Virus record (IMG/VR): IMGVR_UViG_2718218100_000005
Length of the DNA stretch: 23,278 nt
Origin: a virus
Taxonomy: Duplodnaviria > Heunggongvirae > Uroviricota > Caudoviricetes
Direction: 5' to 3' (one strand)
Made by a program: the position numbers and the translations under genes. Each line of letters opens with the position of its first letter. The first letter of the stretch is position 1. Shown in pieces: positions 1,862 through 23,278 of the stretch. The notes under the pieces were generated by a model. The model worked only from the letters and a program-made list of their open reading frames with translations. It ran no database searches and was not told the origin of the DNA.

Positions 1862-1945
1862 TTAACGGTTCACATCCCGAAAATCTGCGCTTCTGGCTGA
1901 AAGCCTGTCCGGTGGTCCTTCGTGAGCGATTTCATCAACAATGTA
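1862..1945 (-). pseudogene. continuation of the gpD-like gene on the other side of IS30, ending after 27 codons
   Basis: After removing IS30 plus one copy of the AG duplication the gpD frame continues in phase as YIVDEIAHEGPPDRLSARSADFRDVNR-stop; gpD-like similarity stops near 1862, implying a deletion of the remaining approx 300 codons. Confidence 0.5.
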
Positions 1946-2005
1946 AGTGTAGATTCAATTGGTCAACGCAACAGTTATGTGAAAACATGGGGTTGCGGAG
2001 GTTTG

Positions 2006-3018
2006 GAACTATGGAAGAACGGAACAGGCTTCAGTGAAATAGCGAATATCCTGGGTTCAAAACCCGGAACGATCTTCACTATGTTAAGGGATACTGGCGG
2101 CATAAAACCCCATGAGCGTAAGCGGGCTGTAGCTCACCTGACACTGTCTGAGCGCGAGGAGATACGAGCTGGTTTGTCAGCCAAAATGAGCATTCGTGCG
2201 ATAGCTACTGCGCTGAATCGCAGTCCTTCGACGATCTCACGTGAAGTTCAGCGTAATCGGGGCAGACGCTATTACAAAGCTGTTGATGCTAATAACCGAG
2301 CCAACAGAATGGCGAAAAGGCCAAAACCGTGCTTACTGGATCAAAATTTACCATTGCGAAAGCTTGTTCTGGAAAAGCTGGAGATGAAATGGTCTCCAGA
2401 GCAAATATCAGGATGGTTAAGGCGAACAAAACCACGTCAAAAAACGCTGCGAATATCACCTGAGACAATTTATAAAACGCTGTACTTTCGTAGCCGTGAA
2501 GCGCTACACCACCTGAATATACAGCATCTGCGACGGTCGCATAGCCTTCGCCATGGCAGGCGTCATACCCGCAAAGGCGAAAGAGGTACGATTAACATAG
2601 TGAACGGAACACCAATTCACGAACGTTCCCGAAATATCGATAACAGACGCTCTCTAGGGCATTGGGAGGGCGATTTAGTCTCAGGTACAAAAAACTCTCA
2701 TATAGCCACACTTGTAGACCGAAAATCACGTTATACGATCATCCTCAGACTCAGGGGCAAAGATTCTGTCTCAGTAAATCAGGCTCTTACCGACAAATTC
2801 CTGAGTTTACCGTCAGAACTCAGAAAATCACTGACATGGGACAGAGGAATGGAACTGGCCAGACATCTAGAATTTACTGTCAGCACCGGCGTTAAAGTTT
2901 ACTTCTGCGATCCTCAGAGTCCTTGGCAGCGGGGAACAAATGAGAACACAAATGGGCTAATTCGGCAGTACTTTCCTAAAAAGACATGTCTTGCCCAATA
3001 TACTCAACATGAACTAGA
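2006..3018 (+). pseudogene. IS30 transposase (InsI-like), 5' and 3' disrupted
   Basis: ORF 1922..3058 matches IS30 transposase from ELWKNGTGFSEIANILGS... to ...AQYTQHEL; N-terminus upstream of ELWK is read-through of the terminal repeat (no native start), 3' end runs into the IS629 terminus at 3019. Confidence 0.85.
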
Positions 3019-3060
3019 TGAACCGCCCCGGGTTTCCTGGAGAGTGTTTTATCTGTGAAC

Positions 3061-3951
3061 TCAGGCTGCCAGATCATCGTTTCCGATGGAAGCATAATAA
3101 GCTTTTTCTGCTTCTGCCGGAGGAGTATGGCCCAGCCTTCCCAGCAATCGTCGATTGTTATACCAGTCCACCCACGTTAGTGTGGCCAGTTCCACTTCTG
3201 CACGGTTTTTCCAGCTCTTACGGTGTATTACCTCCGCTTTGTAAAGACCATTGATGCTCTCAGCCATCGCGTTGTCATACGAGTCGCCTGTACTCCCTGT
3301 TGATGCCAGTAATCCGGCTTCTTTTAGTCGCTCCGTATAGGCCAGTGACACATACTGAGAGCCTTTATCGCTGTGATGGATGGTGCCAGACGGACGACGG
3401 GCCCACAACGCCTGCTCCAGCGCATCCAGCACGAATGTCGTTTCCATAGACGATGAGACCCGCCACCCCACGATGTATCCGGCAAACACATCAATGATAA
3501 ACGCCACATAGACGAAGCCCTGCCATGTGCTGACGTAAGTAAAATCAGCCACCCACAGCTGGTCAGGTCGTTCTGCCACGAACTGACGGTTTACGCGGTC
3601 GCCTGCGGCAACGGCTTTCCGGCTGATGGTCGTACGGACCTTTTTACCCCGGAGAACACCGGCAAGTCCCATAACCGCCATGAGACGTGCCACTGTACAT
3701 CTGGCCACCCTGATTCCTTCCCGTAACAACTGACGCCAGACTTTACGCACACCGTACACCTGATGATTTTCATCGTATACGCGCTGTATCTCTCTCTTCA
3801 GCCAGTCGTCGTGCTGCGCACGGGCACTGCGTTTATCCGGATGATGTCGCTGTTGCTGACAATGGTAATACGTTGACGGGGCAATATGCAGTTCGCTGCA
3901 TACCGGTCCGACCCCGTACTGCTCACGCAGCTTATCCAGCAGTGGCATCAT
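3061..3951 (-). CDS. IS3-family transposase OrfB (DDE integrase-like catalytic domain)
   Basis: 296-aa ORF overlapping orfA by ATGA; contains DDE-type motifs ([30 protein letters not shown]); probably expressed as OrfAB fusion by frameshift. Confidence 0.85.
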
Positions 3952-4274
3952 TTTTTCCAGAGGCGGTCGAACTCCGCCTTCGCAAAATAAGCGGAAGCCT
4001 GGCGAAGGATATCGTTACTGCGGCGCAGTTCACGATTTTCACGTTCCAGCTCTTTCAGACGCTGACGTTCAGCGCTGGTGAGCCCACCATCACCGCCCCC
4101 GGTATCCCGCTCATGCTGGCGAACCCAGACACGCAGAGTCTCCGGCGTACAGCCAATCTTTGGGGCAATGGAACAAATTGCCGCCCACTGTGAGTCATAT
4201 TCATCCTGACTTTCCAGAACCATACGAATCGCCCGCTGACGGACTTCGGGGGAAAAACGAGTATTTTTAGTCAT
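3948..4274 (-). CDS. IS3-family transposase OrfA (HTH)
   Basis: 108-aa [54 protein letters not shown]...; leucine-zipper-like C-terminus; typical IS629 OrfA. Confidence 0.85.
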
Positions 4275-9942: not shown

Positions 9943-10431
9943 ATGATGATGATCTACGGCATGTTTGTTTTTGAGCTGCGCACGTTGCCGCATCAGCAGT
10001 TACAGCAAAACAAAAGCTGGCGACATGTGAAAAATGAACGCGTTAACCGTTCAGCAAGCTGGCAGTATATCGGTGCAGGTGATGATCGCATCGTTCTTTC
10101 TGGTGTTCTTTATCCTGAGATTACTGGTGGCGAAGTGTCGCTGTCGTTGTTGACCACGCAGGCATATACAGGACGTCCTTGGCCTTTGATTGATGGCGTC
10201 GGGCAGATTTACGGCATGTATGTCCTGACCGGAACGAATACGACCCGCTCCGAGTTTGATCGCTACGGTAAGGCGAAAAAGATAGAATTTTCACTGACTC
10301 TTGAACGCTGTGATGAGGATTTGCGGGAGCGCCTGCAATCCTCATCGTTCAGCGATATGCTGTCCGGCTTCAAAGATAAGGTGACATCATCCCTTAATAG
10401 CGCGGCCAGCTCAGTTAAGGGGCTGCTCTGA
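9943..10431 (+). CDS. tail protein (P2 gpU family)
   Basis: ORF 9937..10431; MMMIYGMFVFELRTLPHQQLQ...WRHV...YIGAGDDRIVLSGVLYPEITGG resembles P2 gpU; SD GAGGAG best spaced for ATG at 9943. Confidence 0.8.
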   Translation: MMMIYGMFVFELRTLPHQQLQQNKSWRHVKNERVNRSASWQYIGAGDDRIVLSGVLYPEITGGEVSLSLLTTQAYTGRPWPLIDGVGQIYGMYVLTGTNTTRSEFDRYGKAKKIEFSLTLERCDEDLRERLQSSSFSDMLSGFKDKVTSSLNSAASSVKGLL

Positions 10432-10507
10432 TTTAACGTATGTCGCCAATTTCCTGATGAAGGTGACTGGCGACTTGCTGTTGTATGTCCTTCTCAGAAA
10501 ATTGTTT

Positions 10508-10536
10508 TTGAATAACAAATAACAGGATTTTATAAT
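10508..10536 (+). promoter_or_regulatory. near-consensus sigma70 promoter (TTGAAT -35, 17-nt spacer, TATAAT -10) for the acetyltransferase cargo gene
   Basis: TTGAAT 10508-10513, TATAAT 10531-10536 in an AT-rich intergenic region. Confidence 0.5.
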
Positions 10537-10587
10537 CTCTTAACCTTATAACATGTGTGGTCTGAAATAATAATTAAGGAGATTATC

Positions 10588-11160
10588 GTGCTATCTTACT
10601 TAATGGCAATTCACTTTGTTTTATTTGGAAACTCTACTAATTTAAAAAACTTCTGGAAACATGAAGTAATTCGGCGGAAACGTATGGATATCTGGAGGCT
10701 TTTAAGAGAGAAAAAGCAGCGTAACCGGAATTTCCTTTTCTGGTGGCGGTTGGCTAACGAAATGTATATTAATGGTAATAAATTACATAAGAAAGCAGCC
10801 AAAAAGTTAAACAGTAAAATAATTAACAAGTTTGGTTGTGAAATAGGATTGGGCGCAAATATTGGAAAAGGGTTGACAATTCCCCATCATGCTGGAATTG
10901 TTGTTCATTTTGCTGTTGATGCGGGTGAAAATCTGGTATTACGACAGAATACTACCATTGGACAGATAGATGGTGATATGCCTAGTTCAAGAGTAAAAAT
11001 TGGTAGTAACGTTGATATCGGAGCTAATTGTTGCATCATTGGATTATCACGTAAAATTGGGGATAATGTAAAAATAGGTGCAATGTCTTTTATAAATAAA
11101 GATATACCATCAAACTGCACATATATAACTAAAAAGAGTGGTGTTGTATTGTATAAATAG
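10588..11160 (+). CDS. hexapeptide-repeat (left-handed beta-helix) acyl/acetyltransferase, serine O-acetyltransferase-like
   Basis: GTG start 7 nt after SD AAGGAGA; tandem hexapeptide repeats (IGLGAN, IGKGLT, IGSNVD, IGANCC, IGLSRK, IGDNVK) and an HHAGIVV...G motif as in CysE/LacA-type transferases; markedly AT-rich versus flanking tail genes. Confidence 0.8.
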   Translation: MLSYLMAIHFVLFGNSTNLKNFWKHEVIRRKRMDIWRLLREKKQRNRNFLFWWRLANEMYINGNKLHKKAAKKLNSKIINKFGCEIGLGANIGKGLTIPHHAGIVVHFAVDAGENLVLRQNTTIGQIDGDMPSSRVKIGSNVDIGANCCIIGLSRKIGDNVKIGAMSFINKDIPSNCTYITKKSGVVLYK

Positions 11161-11170
11161 AGTACATAAA

Positions 11171-11206
11171 GCCATCGATATTTCTGTCGATGGCTTTTTC
11201 TTTTTA
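11171..11206. terminator. rho-independent terminator (8-bp stem GCCATCGA/TCGATGGC plus T run), mainly for the plus-strand acetyltransferase gene
   Basis: Perfect hairpin 11171-11194 followed by TTTTTCTTTTTATT. Confidence 0.7.
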
Positions 11207-11736
11207 TTGTGGGGCGACTGGCCACTCAACATCCGCTGCTACTGTTGTATCAACACGATTCAACAATACCCGATATGTCTTCCATGCAGCCAGTAACGAT
11301 GCCTCTTCCTCCGTCGCAATATCCAAATCTACGGCATCCTGAAGTGGCGCAATATGCTCACTGGCTACCTGCATCAGGCTGTTTTTTGTTTCTTCTGCCT
11401 CCCGTACCCGAAACAGTTTTTCTGCTTCTGCATCTTTCGCCCAGGATGTGCCGTTCCACTTCTGACACTCTCCATCCGGCGACAACCAGGTAACATTTTC
11501 CGGTAACGGACCGAGTTCAGAAATAAATAACGCGTCGCCGGAAGCCACGTCATAAACCGTTTTACCCCGATGATCTTCAACGAGATGCCACGATGCCTCA
11601 TTACTGTTGAAAACAGCCACGAAGCCAGCCGGAATATCTGGCGGTGCAATATCGGTACTGTTTGCTGGCAGACCTGTATGAGGCGGAATGTATGCGTCAC
11701 CTTCACCAATAAATTCATTAGTTCCGGCCAGCAGAT
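11204..11736 (-). pseudogene. tail fibre assembly protein (P2 gpG/Tfa family), 5' end removed by IS629 copy 2
   Basis: Minus-strand frame reads ...[62 protein letters not shown]...[35 protein letters not shown], with the C-terminal motif characteristic of Tfa; open frame runs without start codon up to the IS terminus at 11737. Confidence 0.8.
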
Positions 11737-11790: not shown

Positions 11791-12117
11791 ATGACTAAAA
11801 ATACACGTTTTTCCCCCGAGGTCCGTCAACGGGCAGTCCGTATGGTTCTGGAAAGTCAGGGCGAATATGACTCACAATGGGCGGCAATTTGTTCCATTGC
11901 CCCAAAGATTGGCTGTACACCAGAGACTCTGCGTGTGTGGGTTCGTCAGCATGAGCGGGATACCGGGGGCGGTGATGGTGGACTCACCACCGCTGAACGT
12001 CAGCGTCTGAAAGAGCTGGAACGTGAAAATCGTGAACTGCGCCGCAGTAACGATATCCTTCGCCAGGCTTCCGCTTATTTTGCGAAGGCGGAGTTCGACC
12101 GCCTCTGGAAAAAATGA
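11791..12117 (+). CDS. IS3-family transposase OrfA
   Basis: 108-aa ORF nearly identical to copy 1 OrfA (differs at a few residues, e.g. AVRMV/QGEYD/LTTAE). Confidence 0.85.
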
Positions 12118-12796
12118 TGCCACTGCTGGATAAGCTGCGTGAGCAGTACGGGGTCGGACCGGTATGCAGCGAACTGCATATTGCCCCGTCAACGTATTAC
12201 CATTGTCAGCAACAGCGACATCATCCGGATAAACGCAGTGCCCGTGCGCAGCACGACGACTGGCTGAAGAGAGAGATACAGCGCGTATACGATGAAAATC
12301 ATCAGGTGTACGGTGTGCGTAAAGTCTGGCGTCAGTTGTTACGGGAAGGAATCAGGGTGGCCAGATGTACAGTGGCACGTCTCATGGCGGTTATGGGACT
12401 TGCCGGTGTTCTCCGGGGTAAAAAGGTCCGTACGACCATCAGCCGGAAAGCCGTTGCCGCAGGCGACCGCGTAAACCGTCAGTTCGTGGCAGAACGACCT
12501 GACCAGCTGTGGGTGGCTGATTTTACTTACGTCAGCACATGGCAGGGCTTCGTCTATGTGGCGTTTATCATTGATGTGTTTGCCGGATACATCGTGGGGT
12601 GGCGGGTCTCATCGTCTATGGAAACGACATTCGTGCTGGATGCACTGGAGCAGGCGTTGTGGGCCCGTCGGCCGTCCGGCACAGTCCATCACAGTGATAA
12701 AGGTTCTCAGTATGTATCACTGGCCTATACGGAGCGACTAAAAGAAGCAAAACTGCTGGCATCAACAGGGAGTACAGGTGACTCGTATGACAATGT
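12114..12796 (+). pseudogene. IS3-family transposase OrfB, 3'-truncated
   Basis: Matches copy 1 OrfB up to ...[11 protein letters not shown] then ends in unrelated sequence (ORF 12114..12806, 230 aa versus 296 aa). Confidence 0.8.
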
Positions 12797-12825
12797 ATTT
12801 TATTAGTTCACATACAATTATCAGA

Positions 12826-13140
12826 TTATTCTGGGAATAAGGTCTGAATATTCTTTTTTATTTTATAAAAATTGCATTCAACTCCGCTAGGCTGATTAGC
12901 CTGGTATGTTTCCTTGATGCTAACGGTATTGAAGGGGAGGTTGTCCTCTGGCCATTCGGCCATCCAGTAGGCAAATGCTGGGTTGCGCTTTATGAGTGCT
13001 AGCCCAGCCAGAAAGGCCGCGCGTTGCGCGCGGCTGCGTTCGGAGGCTGGCAGGCTATCGAGGTAATTGCACGCCTCCTGTTCACTCTTGACGGCGGCGG
13101 GCTTCAGATAGAAACTTATCCGTCTGGTTGGTGTCGTCAT
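12826..13140 (-). CDS. ParR/StbB-like ribbon-helix-helix partition adaptor (possibly C-terminally shortened)
   Basis: 104-aa ORF 4 nt downstream of the parM-like gene; ISFYLKPA...LDSLPASERSRAQRAAFLAGLALI resembles plasmid R1 ParR N-terminal DNA-binding region; 3' end lies in AT-rich DNA next to the IS truncation point. Confidence 0.6.
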   Translation of the reverse strand: MTTPTRRISFYLKPAAVKSEQEACNYLDSLPASERSRAQRAAFLAGLALIKRNPAFAYWMAEWPEDNLPFNTVSIKETYQANQPSGVECNFYKIKKNIQTLFPE

Positions 13141-13144
13141 TGGT

Positions 13145-14104
13145 TTACTCCTTGTTCATTGCGTACAACCCATTAACCAGAGCAAACTGTGGCACCCCGT
13201 CCGCGATGAAAGTCGCATTAACTCCGCAGGCTTCGCGGATAGCGGTTGCCACAATCTCCGCCCCGCCACCGACAACCATCACCCGCCCGTAACCCGAAAA
13301 AACCGCCAGCGCGCGGATCACGCGTTGTTTCAGTGTTTCTTCCTTTTCACGAATAACCGCCATCAGGCTGGCGTAATGCGCGTCATTGTGGATGTGCTGG
13401 CGCAGCCAGGCTTCATCATGGCGATGTTCGATAATGGTATTGGCGATGTGGTGACTGGTGCGCATACCGTTAGTGGCCATCACCGACAGTACGGCATCGG
13501 CCATCAGAGAAACGCCTACGTGTGGATCGCAAAACACCTGGCTGATACCTGCCAGTTGCCCCTGAACCTTTGCCACATCCAGCGTGGTTCCGCCCAAATC
13601 CACAATCAGCAGGGATTCAAACGGACTCATGTCAGCCAGTGCCTTAAAGCCAGCAGGAATGGATTCAGGCATAACCCGTACGTTACGGATAGTGAATGCT
13701 TCGCCGTTCTGGTACTCCACCGGGCGCATGACGTTCGCTTTTTTGCGGTTGATGTTGGCCATGTCCGGCTGTGCGTTTGTATCGAAATACTCGCTCAGTG
13801 GCAGGGTGACAACCACATCCACTTCCTGTGGTGTGATGCCTGATTTGACCAGCGCGTGATGAATGGCAATTACATTCACATCGCTGTACTGGTATTGCGT
13901 GTCGGTCGTCTGGACAAAGCGATCGCTGACCGGATCAAAACCATAGCGCACGCCATCAAGCATGTAGTTCGCGGGCTGCGTGCCACCGAATGGCGCAGAC
14001 CATTCCGACTTGAAGCTGTTCGGGCTGATGGCGTTGCGGCGTTCGCCGTTCTCAGTCCATGCCAGCTTGATGTTGGTGGAGCCGTCGTCGATACAAATTT
14101 TCAT
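13145..14104 (-). CDS. ParM/StbA-like actin-type segregation ATPase
   Basis: 319-aa ORF starting MKICIDDGSTNIKLAW; co-linear similarity to plasmid R1 ParM (ISPNSFK, YSDVNV, HHAL, VMPESIPAG, DLGGTTLD, GVSL, FSGY, GGGAE, LVNG motifs). Confidence 0.8.
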   Translation of the reverse strand: MKICIDDGSTNIKLAWTENGERRNAISPNSFKSEWSAPFGGTQPANYMLDGVRYGFDPVSDRFVQTTDTQYQYSDVNVIAIHHALVKSGITPQEVDVVVTLPLSEYFDTNAQPDMANINRKKANVMRPVEYQNGEAFTIRNVRVMPESIPAGFKALADMSPFESLLIVDLGGTTLDVAKVQGQLAGISQVFCDPHVGVSLMADAVLSVMATNGMRTSHHIANTIIEHRHDEAWLRQHIHNDAHYASLMAVIREKEETLKQRVIRALAVFSGYGRVMVVGGGAEIVATAIREACGVNATFIADGVPQFALVNGLYAMNKE

Positions 14105-17447: not shown

Positions 17448-17678
17448 TTAATGGAGTTTGTTTTGCTGCTGGATGAGCTGTTGAAACTCGTGCAGATCAT
17501 CCGCCAGATAGCTGAAAACAGAGGCGGAATAAATGTTTGATAGTGCGTGGCTGCGCTCATGCAGCATATTGATGTGCATGATTTGCGCGACGCGTGATGC
17601 GCGGGAAAGTCTGCGGTTGATTTCAGTCTGGATGTGACGACGCTCCGCGATAGCGCGGTGCTGTTTGCGGTCTGCCAT
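17448..17678 (-). CDS. hypothetical basic small protein
   Basis: 76-aa ORF with strong SD AAAGAGG 7 nt upstream; Arg/His-rich, possibly nucleic-acid binding. Confidence 0.5.
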   Translation of the reverse strand: MADRKQHRAIAERRHIQTEINRRLSRASRVAQIMHINMLHERSHALSNIYSASVFSYLADDLHEFQQLIQQQNKLH

Positions 17679-20320: not shown

Positions 20321-20524
20321 TTAGCTGTTAGCCAAAGCGTCTTTTAACATCGCCACAAGGTTTACTTCAGGCTTTTCCATTTTGGCGCGTTTGGGGCGGA
20401 TAATAATTCGACCGTCAGCCAACATCTTTTTGCATGTATTAAGAGGGATACCTGTTATCTCTGCATATTTCTGCAGGGATACATAGGGGGCATTCACATT
20501 GATATTGATGGTTATACCTGACAT
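20321..20524 (-). CDS. small HTH protein, Cox/Apl/excisionase-like
   Basis: 67-aa ORF with SD AGGAGG; YVSLQKYAEITGIPLNTCKKMLADGRI resembles excisionase-type HTH proteins; second gene of the lytic operon, divergent from the repressor. Confidence 0.5.
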   Translation of the reverse strand: MSGITININVNAPYVSLQKYAEITGIPLNTCKKMLADGRIIIRPKRAKMEKPEVNLVAMLKDALANS

Positions 20525-20540: not shown

Positions 20541-20747
20541 TCAGGAAGATTTGTTTTGTTCTTTCTGGGTTAGCTCTAGGCCGCGAAGGGAGATCATGCG
20601 CGCCATGTTAGAGGATGAGCGTTGTTCTTTAGCTGCCATTTCATCAATGACGGCTCGCTCCTCGAGGGACAGCCGAAGTGCCAGTCTTGGACCTGTGGCG
20701 GTGTTACGCGGAATGCGTGATCTGGTATCGTGAAGAACTTGTTTCAT
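20541..20747 (-). CDS. ribbon-helix-helix-like small DNA-binding protein, first gene of the lytic operon
   Basis: 68-aa ORF; RLALRLSLEERAVIDEMAAKEQRSSSNMARMI fits a beta-strand/helix/helix RHH pattern; weak SD, so start uncertain. Confidence 0.4.
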   Translation of the reverse strand: MKQVLHDTRSRIPRNTATGPRLALRLSLEERAVIDEMAAKEQRSSSNMARMISLRGLELTQKEQNKSS

Positions 20748-20784: not shown

Positions 20785-20813
20785 ATTTTGGTATCAAAAA
20801 AGATACCTGTCAA
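20785..20813 (-). promoter_or_regulatory. candidate lytic (early) promoter: TTGACA -35 and CAAAAT -10 on the minus strand, 17-nt spacer
   Basis: Minus-strand TTGACA (plus coordinates 20808-20813), spacer containing the palindrome, -10 at 20785-20790; sits 30-60 nt upstream of the RHH ORF. Confidence 0.45.
20790..20807. promoter_or_regulatory. candidate operator: perfect inverted repeat GGTATC-AAAAAA-GATACC
   Basis: 6-bp arms separated by A6, located within the spacer of the candidate lytic promoter and 17 nt upstream of the repressor start codon. Confidence 0.5.
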
Positions 20814-20823
20814 GGGTTTTTGT

Positions 20824-21228
20824 ATGAAAAATGATATTGGTCGGCGGTTGCGTGAGGAAAGGGAAAGATTGGGACTTAGTCAAGTTGCCATGAGCGACAT
20901 TGGTGGAGTCAAAAAGCTAACTCAGCTTAGATATGAGAAAGGAGATAGCTTTCCTGATGCTGCGTATTTGGCAGCGCTGTCTCGTTTTGGCCTTGATGTT
21001 CAGTATGTTGTGTTGGGAATTCACTCACCTGAAACTTATAACGATGATGAGCAGGAATTGATTACTCGCTTTCGAGCAGCTTCGTTAGATGTGAAAAACG
21101 CGGTGATTGGGGCTTTAAAAGGTGCGATCAGTGAAAAGGAAACTCAGCCATCAGGACGTGAGTTAAATATTTCTGGTGGTAATAACCGTATCGCTGGTCG
21201 TGACTATAACGAAACTAAGGGTAGGTGA
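20824..21228 (+). CDS. XRE-family HTH repressor (P2 C / 186 CI analogue by position)
   Basis: Sub-ORF of 20749..21228 starting at MKNDIGRRL with RBS AAGGG; IGRRLREERERLGLSQVAMSDIGGVKKLTQLRYEKGDSFP is a canonical HTH_XRE domain; divergent from the lytic operon and upstream of integrase. Confidence 0.75.
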   Translation: MKNDIGRRLREERERLGLSQVAMSDIGGVKKLTQLRYEKGDSFPDAAYLAALSRFGLDVQYVVLGIHSPETYNDDEQELITRFRAASLDVKNAVIGALKGAISEKETQPSGRELNISGGNNRIAGRDYNETKGR

Positions 21229-21243
21229 TAGTAGGGAGGTGAC

Positions 21244-21894
21244 ATGGCCGTCAACTCAAACGGTTCAAACAATCGCGTTGCTGGGCGTGATTTTCACGAA
21301 AAGAATATTCAGATAGAGCGATATGATGGTTCTCATACCGTCAATATCGCAATCCCTTCGAATAATGATGATGACGATCGCCCTTTGCTTAAGGCTCAGC
21401 GTAAGGAGCTAAATAGCTTGGTTGCTGCTATTGCAGAAGCTAGCAATACTGAAGCGTTTATTATTTGGCAAAAAGTACATGCGGAGATTGGTGTAGCTGG
21501 TATTGATGATATGACAGTAAATCAATATAAAACAGCGGAGAGTTTTCTGCATGCAATGCTTGAGCGATGTAAAGATCATGATGCCTGTAAGGCTCTTGTA
21601 AGTTTATTACTACGTAACAGTGAAGACTGTGGACTTCGACAAAAACTTCTGCGGTATTGCCATATCAATTTCGGTACAGGACGTTTAAACGATCTTACTC
21701 GTTCTCAGTTACAGTCTGCATTGTCGTGGTTAGAGCAACAATCGGCATCAAGCCACATAGAGAGTTCGACCTTACCAGAAGTCCGACTTCGTGCTTCAGA
21801 ATTAATCCGACTTTATCCAAAAGAAATAATATTCTTTATCTGCGTAGGGGTTTTGGTAGGCGGTGTCATTTCTAGGGCGTTTTTTAATTTGTAA
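21244..21894 (+). CDS. hypothetical protein with C-terminal transmembrane anchor (cargo gene downstream of repressor)
   Basis: 216-aa ORF with strong RBS GGGAGGTGA; N-terminal NNRVAGRDF motif echoing the repressor C-terminus; hydrophobic C-terminus EIIFFICVGVLVGGVI; AT-rich. Confidence 0.55.
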   Translation: MAVNSNGSNNRVAGRDFHEKNIQIERYDGSHTVNIAIPSNNDDDDRPLLKAQRKELNSLVAAIAEASNTEAFIIWQKVHAEIGVAGIDDMTVNQYKTAESFLHAMLERCKDHDACKALVSLLLRNSEDCGLRQKLLRYCHINFGTGRLNDLTRSQLQSALSWLEQQSASSHIESSTLPEVRLRASELIRLYPKEIIFFICVGVLVGGVISRAFFNL

Positions 21895-21923
21895 TCTTAC
21901 TTGAGCTAAATTGAGGTAATGAT

Positions 21924-22271
21924 ATGAAAGTAAAAAAGGTTCAACTATTAGTTACTTTTTTATCTATGTTTTCTTTTTCCGCCGTCGCAATGCCTTTTAA
22001 AACTATTGAACGTGAGAGTTTCAATGGGGTATGGCCATTTAATACTGATGAGGTTCAATTACAGTGTCTTGATGGTAATCCTTATGTGATGAATTTTGAC
22101 GATAATAAGTTATATGCACTTACAGGTTTGGCTCGAATAAAAGGTAAAACATTTGGTGCGTTACCGTTAGATAACAATAATCCATTTTGGCTAGATAATG
22201 ATGCCGCCCCAGGGTTAAAAAAGAGTCTGGGGGATGTCACTAAGGCTGCATTTGATTTATGTGATAAGTAA
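21924..22271 (+). CDS. small secreted/periplasmic hypothetical protein
   Basis: 115-aa ORF with RBS GAGGTAA; N-terminal signal-like sequence MKVKKVQLLVTFLSMFSFSAVA; two Cys (possible disulfide); AT-rich. Confidence 0.55.
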   Translation: MKVKKVQLLVTFLSMFSFSAVAMPFKTIERESFNGVWPFNTDEVQLQCLDGNPYVMNFDDNKLYALTGLARIKGKTFGALPLDNNNPFWLDNDAAPGLKKSLGDVTKAAFDLCDK

Positions 22272-22276
22272 CTAAA

Positions 22277-23278
22277 ATGTCGGTTCGTAAGATTCCATCA
22301 GGTAAATGGCTTTGTGAATGTTATCCCTACGGGGCATCGGGAAAACGCATTCGTAAACAGTTTGCGACAAAAAGTGAGGCGCTCTCTTATGAGCGCCGTT
22401 TAATGAATAGTAGAGTTGGAGACGAGTTTCAAGATGGTTCTGGTCCTCGTCTTTCTGAGTTGATTGCTCGTTGGTTTGAGATGTACGGTAAAACCTTGTC
22501 CTCTGGTGCAGAGCGCAAAGTCAAACTTGAGGCGATTTGTTCCAGGCTGGGAGATCCATTTGCTTCTCAGTTTGACAAAAATATGTTTGCTACTTATCGG
22601 GAAAGAAGGCTATCAGGAGAATGGAATCCCAAGGGGAAGAAAAAACTTAGTGAAGCAACCGTTAATCGCGAGCAGTCATATCTACATGCTGTTTTTGCCG
22701 AACTGAAGCGCCTTGGGGAGTGGTCTGGTGAAAACCCCCTGACTGGTATTCGCAAGTTTCGTGAGGAAGAAAAGGAACTGGCGTTTCTGTATGTAGATGA
22801 GATTGAACGCCTTCTGATTGCGTGTGATGAGTCACGGAATAAAGATTTGGGGGTTGTTGTCCGTATTGGGCTTGCGACTGGTGCTCGGTGGAGTGAAGCA
22901 GAAGGATTAAAGCAATCTCAAGTACTGCCCGGTCGAATCACATTTGTTAAAACTAAAGGAAAGAAGAACCGCACTGTACCGATTTCACCTCAATTGCAAG
23001 CTATGCTTCCTAAAAAACGAGGAGCGCTATTTTCACCATGTTATGAGGCTTTTGACGCTGCAATTAAGAGAGCGAAGATCGAGCTTCCTGATGGGCAATT
23101 AACTCATGTGCTACGTCACACGTTTGCCAGTCATTTTATGATGCGGGGTGGAAATATTCTTGTGTTGCAAAAAATACTGGGGCATAGCGATATAAAAATG
23201 ACTATGCGTTATGCGCATTTTGCTCCAGGTCATTTAGAGGCTGCTGTTGAATTGAACCCTTTTGACAATAGAGGGTAA
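22277..23278 (+). CDS. tyrosine recombinase/integrase (P2 Int family)
   Basis: 333-aa ORF; conserved integrase residues in LATGARWSEA, HVLRHTFASHFMMRGGNI, LGHSDIKMTMRYAHF; stop codon is the last triplet of the window. Confidence 0.9.
   Translation: MSVRKIPSGKWLCECYPYGASGKRIRKQFATKSEALSYERRLMNSRVGDEFQDGSGPRLSELIARWFEMYGKTLSSGAERKVKLEAICSRLGDPFASQFDKNMFATYRERRLSGEWNPKGKKKLSEATVNREQSYLHAVFAELKRLGEWSGENPLTGIRKFREEEKELAFLYVDEIERLLIACDESRNKDLGVVVRIGLATGARWSEAEGLKQSQVLPGRITFVKTKGKKNRTVPISPQLQAMLPKKRGALFSPCYEAFDAAIKRAKIELPDGQLTHVLRHTFASHFMMRGGNILVLQKILGHSDIKMTMRYAHFAPGHLEAAVELNPFDNRG

Follow-up and report, generated by a model that had tools for sequence, protein, structure and literature searches.

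What do the genes lying between the immunity repressor and the integrase of a P2-like prophage do for the phage that carries them? The question is raised by IMG/VR virus record IMGVR_UViG_2718218100_000005, a stretch of 23,278 nucleotides (nt) from a virus of the Caudoviricetes. The whole stretch is called the window below and coordinates are counted from its first letter. Two open reading frames (ORFs), coding for proteins of 216 and 115 residues (aa), are located at this place. A preliminary description of the sequence regarded them as a single pair of AT-rich cargo genes, expressed in the lysogen and a candidate for superinfection exclusion or host interaction. Both ORFs are real (21244-21894 and 21924-22271) and both lie between the repressor and integrase genes in the orientation of the repressor, but they do not constitute a pair. 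The 216-aa protein, a tail-anchored protein with a Flk_N domain, is a constant partner of this class of XRE repressor and not cargo. The 115-aa gene, which encodes an exported protein of the YebY family, is a separately acquired cargo gene. The reading as a whole, in which the former acts as a repressor-coupled membrane partner and the latter as a separate envelope cargo gene, is one that we consider equally apt to stand or to fall.

The repressor, Flk_N, YebY-like and integrase genes are the lysogenic operon of a defective P2-like prophage. In Escherichia coli O157:H7 Sakai the region is present at 100% identity as 'prophage Sp13, P2-like phage', and its counterpart in strain EDL933 is CP-933T, adjoining yecA. 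DNA matches to the region were found in 510 of the 5,426 complete E. coli genomes. All four genes are on the + strand, in the order repressor (20824-21228; ECs_2620, 'phage repressor protein' in Sakai), 216-aa ORF (ECs_2619, 'membrane protein'), 115-aa ORF (ECs_2618) and integrase (22277-23278; ECs_2617). They are separated by gaps of 15, 29 and 5 nt, respectively, and a scan for terminator-like sites on the + strand among the four genes found none. Good ribosome-binding sites had been described for both ORFs and are present, GGGAGGT 6 nt before the ATG of the 216-aa gene and GAGGT 8 nt before the start of the 115-aa gene. The supposed AT-richness belongs to the 115-aa gene only. With a GC content of 0.35 it is the sole gene whose composition departs from its neighbours; the 216-aa gene (0.41) lies near the repressor (0.44) and integrase (0.45) genes, themselves low in a window that averages 0.505.

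The different status of the two ORFs was revealed by a survey of the repressor-integrase junction. Over 50 prophage loci, with E. coli, Gilliamella and uncultured viral contigs among their sources, have a Flk_N gene after an XRE repressor gene, and it stands directly behind the repressor gene in every surveyed locus save Erwinia. The order repressor, Flk_N gene, variable gene, integrase was found in E. coli, Klebsiella, Citrobacter, Enterobacter, Erwinia, Mixta, Izhakiella, Rosenbergiella, Hafnia and Serratia. Immediately before the integrase gene is a slot with at least six alternative occupants, of which the 115-aa gene is one. A YebY-like gene is present in the window and in loci L016, L019 and L021; a DUF8087 protein is encoded in L003, L010, L023 and L026, a BRCT plus WYL-like protein of 288-292 aa in L006 and L024, membrane proteins of 242-244 aa in L022 and L027, a secreted protein of 198 aa in L014 and two small proteins in L029, and in L028 the slot is empty. 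The same cargo genes are also found in sister prophages devoid of any Flk_N gene (L075, L080). Since the Flk_N gene is kept while its neighbour is swapped, and since the cargo also occurs in sisters lacking the Flk_N gene, the two ORFs differ in status: the Flk_N gene is a fixed part of the immunity module and the YebY-like gene is swappable cargo. The idea of a variable cargo at this junction thus holds for the 115-aa gene and fails for the 216-aa gene. The latter is a conserved fixture of this type of immunity module in more than 10 genera and on unrelated backbones, which is the very finding that the preliminary description had named as telling against its proposal. Scans with P0178, P0158 and P0165 for a wider sampling of loci returned nothing.

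Several of these loci display features of their own. The BRCT plus WYL-like proteins of Klebsiella/Enterobacter (L006 5647-6513, 288 aa; L024 5635-6513, 292 aa) carry an N-terminal BRCT domain (E=5e-5) and a weakly WYL-like middle part. A PADLOC search of eight alternative slot occupants gave nothing apart from weak WYL and PDC-S48 matches on the 288-aa protein. In distant phages the gene after Flk_N repeatedly codes for a lipoprotein or secreted protein of differing sequence (L031 3453-3893, L034 3582-4139, L033 3599-3934, L036 3091-3489, L078 3999-4373), so that an exported protein is often encoded behind the tail-anchored one, even outside Enterobacterales. In Candidatus Symbiopectobacterium (L026 5001-5631) the module is decaying: both the Flk_N gene and the integrase gene are split, and drift has turned the repressor tail into NRVAGNNFHE.

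The bond between the repressor and the Flk_N protein is most apparent in their tails. The repressor ends in LNISGGNNRIAGRDYNETKGR and the 216-aa protein starts with MAVNSNGSNNRVAGRDFHEKN, the C-terminal tail of the first being mirrored by the N-terminal tail of the next. The two copies of the motif, LNISGGNNRIAGRDYNE in the repressor (21163-21213, + strand) and, 87 nt from it, VNSNGSNNRVAGRDFHE in the Flk_N protein (21250-21300, + strand), share a core that reads NNRIAGRDYNE and NNRVAGRDFHE. The window pair has a BLOSUM62 local score of 62 (z=10 against shuffles). In a six-frame translation of the window the motif, written as a regular expression, occurs in these two places only, and a similar expression applied to the surveyed Enterobacterales loci hit, where it matched, only the same two ORFs on the + strand, even though the helix-turn-helix (HTH) domains of the repressors are of several types. 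Cognate tails score 37-67 (z 5.7-12.9 against shuffles), whereas comparisons between the two main motif classes give 12-26, i.e. background. The mirror was also present in 27 of 29 further viral contigs (z 4.2-12.6), in which the ORFs upstream of Flk_N code for XRE HTH proteins. In distant IMG/VR relatives, some with a different backbone (Ner-like regulator, lysis genes), the Flk_N proteins are only about 30% identical to that of the window and the tails are still paired. Both tails co-vary between lineages, as illustrated by the repressor and Flk_N tails of L033 (EVSGDGNRVAGRDYKE and ETGGNGNRVAARDYLE), L031 (QQFNGPVGGVTSGDVVN and QQFNGAVKQVAAGDIKN), L036 (QIFNGDISGQFAGNQIIN and QEFNGTAQGQFSSRDIIN), L043 (FHGSVGQVIKGD and FHGDTGVVAGGD), L055 (QTFHGAVGQSVAGNVTNKAGVTFNFGD and QDFHGDVGQAAAGDINNYGININLAD) and Gilliamella L078 (NNTIRGEGQIAGGNIY and DNTAEQIAGRDIY). 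In composition the tails are rich in Q/N/G, and I/V/F alternate along them. Motifs of class B (QxFHGxVGQ...) extend over about 27 residues in two strand-like halves, and the class A motif (NRxAGRDY), to which the window belongs, is short and R/D/E-rich.

The likeness is kept at the protein level, because the identical residues mostly use different codons: codons are shared at 4-7 of the 10-12 identical residues across pairs, and at 4 of 10 in the window. These synonymous differences between the copies rule out a DNA repeat or a gene conversion as the source of the shared motif. Readthrough or frameshifting into a repressor-Flk_N fusion was likewise rejected, as three consecutive stops separate the genes here and their relative frame varies between loci. 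The tail and the Flk_N gene are also absent together. The tail-less repressors P0417 and P0421, which have nearly the same HTH and a different C-terminal half, belong to sister prophages without a Flk_N gene. Gene order, co-varying mirror and joint presence or absence argue for a joint action of the Flk_N protein and the constant C-terminal module of the repressor. Full-text literature searches turned up neither a Flk_N protein described as partner of a repressor nor the mirrored tails, and while both genes belong to known families the pairing with the repressor appears to be undescribed.

The 216-aa protein (21244-21894, + strand) has three parts: residues 1-45 form a disordered N-tail, residues 46-172 or thereabouts a helical Flk_N domain, and residues 192-215 (21817-21888, + strand) a C-terminal transmembrane helix. 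In the AlphaFold2 (AF2) model, with a predicted local distance difference test (pLDDT) score of 74, residues 1-45 are disordered, six helices span residues 50-172 and a linker leads to the transmembrane helix. The Kyte-Doolittle profile agrees with the membrane anchor of the preliminary description: the 15-residue segment of highest hydrophobicity is 195-209 (mean 3.03). The protein has no N-terminal signal peptide, and in the AF2 topology its bulk faces the cytoplasm and almost nothing reaches the periplasm. Neither of the two proteins had been assigned to a recognised family, although both have one and homologues of the two number in the hundreds. The 216-aa protein is matched over its full length by phrog_5825 (E=8.5e-103) and over residues 37-166 by the NCBIfam Flk model (E=8e-16). 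Its score against the Flk equivalog NF007987 is 58.2 bits for a cut-off of 353, which places it outside the equivalog. The assignment to PF27202 (Flk_N) was made through its homologues, 117 of the 120 listed being recorded with this domain. The family is a small one (138 clusters at 50% identity in a set of 1.84 billion proteins) and falls into two size groups, one of 190-230 aa and a Flk-like one of 320-430 aa.

For Flk itself, tail anchoring has been proven (PMC6794478). Flk keeps the flagellar export machinery in an early mode and contacts FlhA_C in two-hybrid assays, a function known only for Salmonella Flk (PMC13344023). The two proteins have in common the homologous helical domain and a cytoplasmic disposition with a single, very hydrophobic C-terminal anchor. 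They differ in that Flk, a protein of about 330 aa encoded by a chromosomal flagellar gene, has a Pro/Gly-rich N-terminus and two tandem copies of the region that is single in the 216-aa protein (each copy 23-24% identical to it). The latter has an AGRD-type N-tail, is encoded in a prophage beside a repressor and has relatives in Klebsiella prophages; the mirrored motif is absent from true Flk. The first three-helix unit of the Flk_N protein recurs at the C-terminal end of the antirepressor-like phage proteins P0248 and P0274, and weak matches link the 216-aa protein to the antirepressor-like families phrog_245 and phrog_2127. Another branch (P0229, P0246, P0264, P0265, P0269) combines an AGRD-type N-tail, one Flk_N-like unit, a long coiled coil, a transmembrane segment and a Cys-containing extracytoplasmic C-terminal domain, an architecture that looks like that of one-pass signal transducers. 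The prophage with the Flk-like gene lies in EDL933 (2,687,590) about 13 kb from flhDC and about 25 kb from flhBA (L030, 2,659,364-2,674,587); this closeness probably came about by chance, through the attachment site on the yecA side.

The 115-aa gene (21924-22271, + strand) codes for a Sec-exported protein of the DUF2511/YebY family. The signal peptide noticed earlier is confirmed: residues 1-22 (21924-21989, + strand), MKVKKVQLLVTFLSMFSFSAVA, end in AVA before the predicted cleavage site, MPF follows, and the product was classed SPI in a secretome of enterohaemorrhagic E. coli (EHEC) (PMC12962677). Pfam PF10709 matches the protein at 28.4 bits for a gathering threshold of 21, over profile positions 2-87 of 87, and phrog_2950 matches with E=8.7e-40. 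The sequence of the E. coli YebY crystal structure (7n0j) is a distant relative (E=0.003). W37, C48 and C113 are invariant in 16 homologues, and the equivalent residues of YebY make up its conserved core and disulfide (PMC8689200). When the AF2 model (mean pLDDT 73) was submitted to Foldseek, the sole meaningful match was MlbQ (2mvo), a lantibiotic self-resistance protein, with a probability of 1.00 and E=0.009 at a template-modelling (TM) score of only 0.44. YebY 7n0j, which had been found by sequence, was not among the fold matches. MlbQ and YebY share with the 115-aa protein the signal peptide, Trp37 and the Cys48-Cys113 pair. Unlike MlbQ, the 115-aa protein is a soluble periplasmic form and not a lipoprotein, and its gene does not stand beside ABC transporters. 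It also lies outside any AZY operon (yobA-yebZ-yebY), a context that defines only the AZY subgroup and not the whole DUF2511 family; neither yobA nor yebZ is present in the prophage, where the context runs from the Flk_N gene to the integrase gene. That Enterobacteriaceae have yebY genes flanked by those of a XerD-like recombinase and a CI-type repressor had already been noted (PMC8689200), so that the position of the YebY-like gene is not new.

Expression in the lysogen, which the preliminary description had expected of both genes, stands insofar as both sit in the repressor-integrase operon and lysogens produce the 115-aa protein. Its gene, EDL933_RS14105, is represented in the mass spectrometry proteome of ciprofloxacin-treated EDL933, with changes of 1.43-fold at 3 h and -5.43-fold at 12 h (PMC11125564, supplement), and in the EHEC secretome mentioned above. 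The protein would be exported by Sec to the periplasm and locked there by its disulfide as a small binding protein of the YebY/MlbQ type. By analogy with MlbQ, it may bind or neutralise something that reaches the envelope, for instance a peptide toxin or a phage component.

How could a tail-anchored protein act on a repressor? In the favoured reading of a membrane partner coupled to the repressor, the hydrophobic anchor would insert the 216-aa protein post-translationally into the inner membrane, leaving the helical Flk_N domain and the flexible N-tail of about 45 residues in the cytoplasm. Judging from their mirrored sequences, the two tails may then pair with each other, or dock on or compete for one shared partner, at the cytoplasmic face of the inner membrane. 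The membrane-bound protein would thereby tune the pool of free or stable repressor and set the threshold between lysogeny and induction. A more specific form of this proposal, that a widespread class of XRE repressors of temperate phages is wired to the tail-anchored protein by homotypic co-evolving peptides, possibly through templated beta assembly, which capture, release or stabilise the repressor, is offered tentatively and is more probably wrong than right.

The best functional analogy for a repressor-linked accessory gene is lambda Rex. In the cI-rexA-rexB operon, accessory genes are likewise co-transcribed with the repressor gene in the lysogen and one product resides in the inner membrane. 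RexA contacts CI. There is no relation of sequence or fold, RexB is polytopic whereas a single transmembrane segment is present here, and Rex shares no tail motif with CI. Rex functions are reported to assist the switch from lysogeny to the lytic cycle and to exclude phages (10.1101/2021.04.19.439022).

Several observations weigh against the favoured reading. AF2 leaves the N-tail of the Flk_N protein unstructured (pLDDT about 44). The shared tail could reflect a third partner (for example a protease or antirepressor), or else a signal for localisation or turnover that leaves the switch untouched. The repressor and Flk_N genes need not be immediate neighbours, as a YebY gene lies between them in Erwinia, and the mirror is missing in L071 and L072, whose Flk_N proteins carry an extra N-terminal extension. 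Because Sp13 is defective and the O157 strains are close to clonal, the 99-100% conservation across 479 genomes says little on selection. As to the 115-aa protein, the function of YebY being unsettled (PMC8689200), the analogy with MlbQ is the only one from which its role can be read.

Both genes might instead be exclusion cargo for lysogenic conversion, on the model of T4 Imm/Sp, P22 Sie and HK97 gp15. The membrane protein would block DNA entry with the help of the periplasmic one, and the likeness to the repressor tail would be incidental. Prophage genes at this position often exclude phages (lambda rexAB, P22 sieB), both genes are expressed from the repressor operon, one product is membrane-bound and the other exported, and the exported lipoproteins behind the Flk_N gene of distant phages repeat this arrangement. 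The pairing of T4 Imm (inner membrane) with Sp (periplasm) similarly joins a membrane protein and a small exported protein at the envelope. There is no homology to Imm or Sp, however, T4 is lytic, and the genes considered here are no fixed pair: the second slot is freely swapped and also holds cytoplasmic proteins (DUF8087, BRCT-WYL-like) or nothing. The bulk of the 216-aa protein is cytoplasmic, with nearly nothing in the periplasm. Both PHROG families are of unknown function and PADLOC, searched with both proteins at E up to 1, matched no model (the other ORFs of the window gave nothing either). Exclusion also accounts neither for the co-varying mirror nor for the linkage of tail and gene, and we regard it as rather unlikely. 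The mirror is, by contrast, the starting point of another alternative, in which the repressor and the Flk_N protein are a sensor-effector pair acting through templated beta-strand (amyloid-like) assembly, as in Bab/Agp or HET-S/NWD2. The tail of a disturbed repressor would nucleate the N-tail of the Flk_N protein, with the outcome that the membrane is damaged (abortive infection) or the repressor is captured irreversibly (commitment to lysis). The genomic signature is present, namely a motif at the C-terminus of one protein and at the N-terminus of the product of the adjacent gene, co-varying (criteria in 10.1101/2020.01.06.895854), and Bab/Agp (BASS11) provides a precedent in E. coli prophages (10.1101/2024.11.07.622273). 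Bab/Agp, the Bell/NLR pairs BASS1-10 and HET-S/NWD2 likewise have a shared terminal motif of about 40-70% identity, co-variation and one membrane-targeting partner, such as the HeLo and Bell effectors; the composition of the tails and the two strand-like halves of class B would also fit. The polarity is reversed, the sensor bearing the N-terminal copy in the described NLR/effector pairs, and the window motif NNRIAGRDYNE is short, R/D/E-rich and untypical of amyloid cores. Known amyloid pairs employ an NLR/TPR sensor and a pore-forming effector, whereas a DNA-binding repressor and a Flk_N protein are found here with neither an NLR/STAND sensor nor a known pore-forming domain. Amyloid signalling is accordingly held to be improbable.

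The remaining alternatives start from the families of the two proteins. As a Flk mimic, the 216-aa protein would bind FlhA, or EscV of the injectisome of the EHEC locus of enterocyte effacement (LEE), hold type III secretion in an early state and change the flagellation or effector secretion of the lysogen. It is homologous to the repeated N-terminal region of Flk and has the same tail-anchored topology, and Flk blocks premature late secretion (PMC13344023). Its 58 bits are nevertheless far under the equivalog cut-off of 353, the domain is present as a single copy, and where Flk has a Pro-rich N-terminus this protein has the AGRD tail. The occurrence of the helical unit in antirepressor-like proteins gives it the look of a general protein-binding module, and the link to the repressor tail is left unexplained. 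Klebsiella pneumoniae is non-flagellate, and one Flk_N protein of this species is recorded in 754 contigs; as the gene is common in K. pneumoniae prophages, a flagellar role was judged unlikely, and we give mimicry of Flk very little credence. The least credible proposal of all concerns the 115-aa protein, which would act like chromosomal YebY as an extra copper-delivery factor for the lysogen. Its membership of DUF2511 and the two cysteines, which bind copper in YebY, speak for it. That binding is weak and occurs only after reduction (PMC8689200), the similarity to E. coli YebY is distant, and the yobA and yebZ partners are missing from the prophage.

The repressor gene at the head of the operon (20824-21228, + strand) encodes an XRE-type HTH (HTH_31/HTH_3, phrog_8) with the conserved helix ELITRFRAASLDVKNAVIGALKG and the C-terminal tail discussed above. 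The promoter scan did not pick up a lysogenic promoter. Facing the divergent early (lytic) operon, a promoter-like site, TTGACA-17-CAAAAT (20785-20813, - strand), would be the equivalent of Pe, as a consensus match only. The first gene of the early operon codes for an Arc-like repressor (20541-20747, - strand; phrog_3431 over its full length, E=4.3e-27) and the second for a Cox-like protein (20321-20524, - strand), whose orthologue in phage 520873 is annotated 'Cox-like excisionase and repressor'. Escherichia phage 520873 (Xuanwuvirus) is the only deposited phage genome with the region, and both the 216-aa and 115-aa ORFs appear frameshifted and unannotated in it. RefSeq and Sakai call a 45-aa ORF on the + strand (20597-20734; ECs_2621, WP_001673482.1) that overlaps the Arc-like ORF of 68 aa on the - strand. 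The latter is annotated as an Arc-like repressor in 520873 and left unannotated by RefSeq, and the 45-aa call is probably on the wrong strand. Also in the early region, a 76-aa member of the 'Derepression protein' family (17448-17678, - strand; PF25738, E=1e-7) is a candidate antirepressor. SOS control of its gene was considered and rejected, as there is no LexA box nearby and the single CTGT-N8-ACAG match lies inside gene A. At the other end, the operon closes with an HP1-type tyrosine integrase (22277-23278, + strand; Int_N and Phage_integrase), 59% identical to the HP1 and HP2 integrases. Its gene has no Shine-Dalgarno sequence and starts 5 nt past the preceding stop codon.

Elsewhere in the window, a partition pair of plasmid type is found on the - strand, a Plasmid_stab_B protein (12826-13140, E=8e-29) and ParM (13145-14104; StbA_N, ParM_N, E=1e-82). 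It is located just downstream of the P2-type replication endonuclease gene. Integrated P2-like prophages do not usually have such a pair, which points to the ancestry or lifestyle of a plasmid-prophage. Insertion sequences, one IS30-like and two IS3-family copies, interrupt the prophage (1922-3058, +; 3061-4274, -; 11791-12806, +), in line with Sp13 being a 21-kb defective remnant. A second island of low GC (10401-11400, GC 0.33-0.37) contains an ORF of 201 aa (10555-11160, + strand) with a sub-threshold hexapeptide-transferase match and no PADLOC match. It adjoins a tail-fibre assembly gene (11204-11620) and may represent further cargo.

In Enterobacterales, P2-like prophages rank with the most frequent ones, and the majority of them are not SOS-inducible. 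How their repressors are naturally switched off is poorly understood, and a membrane partner that copies the tail of the repressor would offer a concrete handle on this question. If the wiring of repressors to a tail-anchored protein by co-evolving peptides is true, it would represent a new input to the lysogeny switch, or a repressor-triggered abortive-infection device, in phages without an SOS-cleavable repressor. For the O157:H7 strains, two 'hypothetical' proteins can be relabelled, ECs_2619 as a repressor-linked, tail-anchored Flk_N protein and ECs_2618 as an expressed and exported protein of the YebY family, and the true cargo site of this prophage group is the slot just upstream of the integrase gene. 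More broadly, the logic of shared terminal motifs, so far a property of immune sensor-effector pairs, could extend to the transcriptional control of lysogeny.

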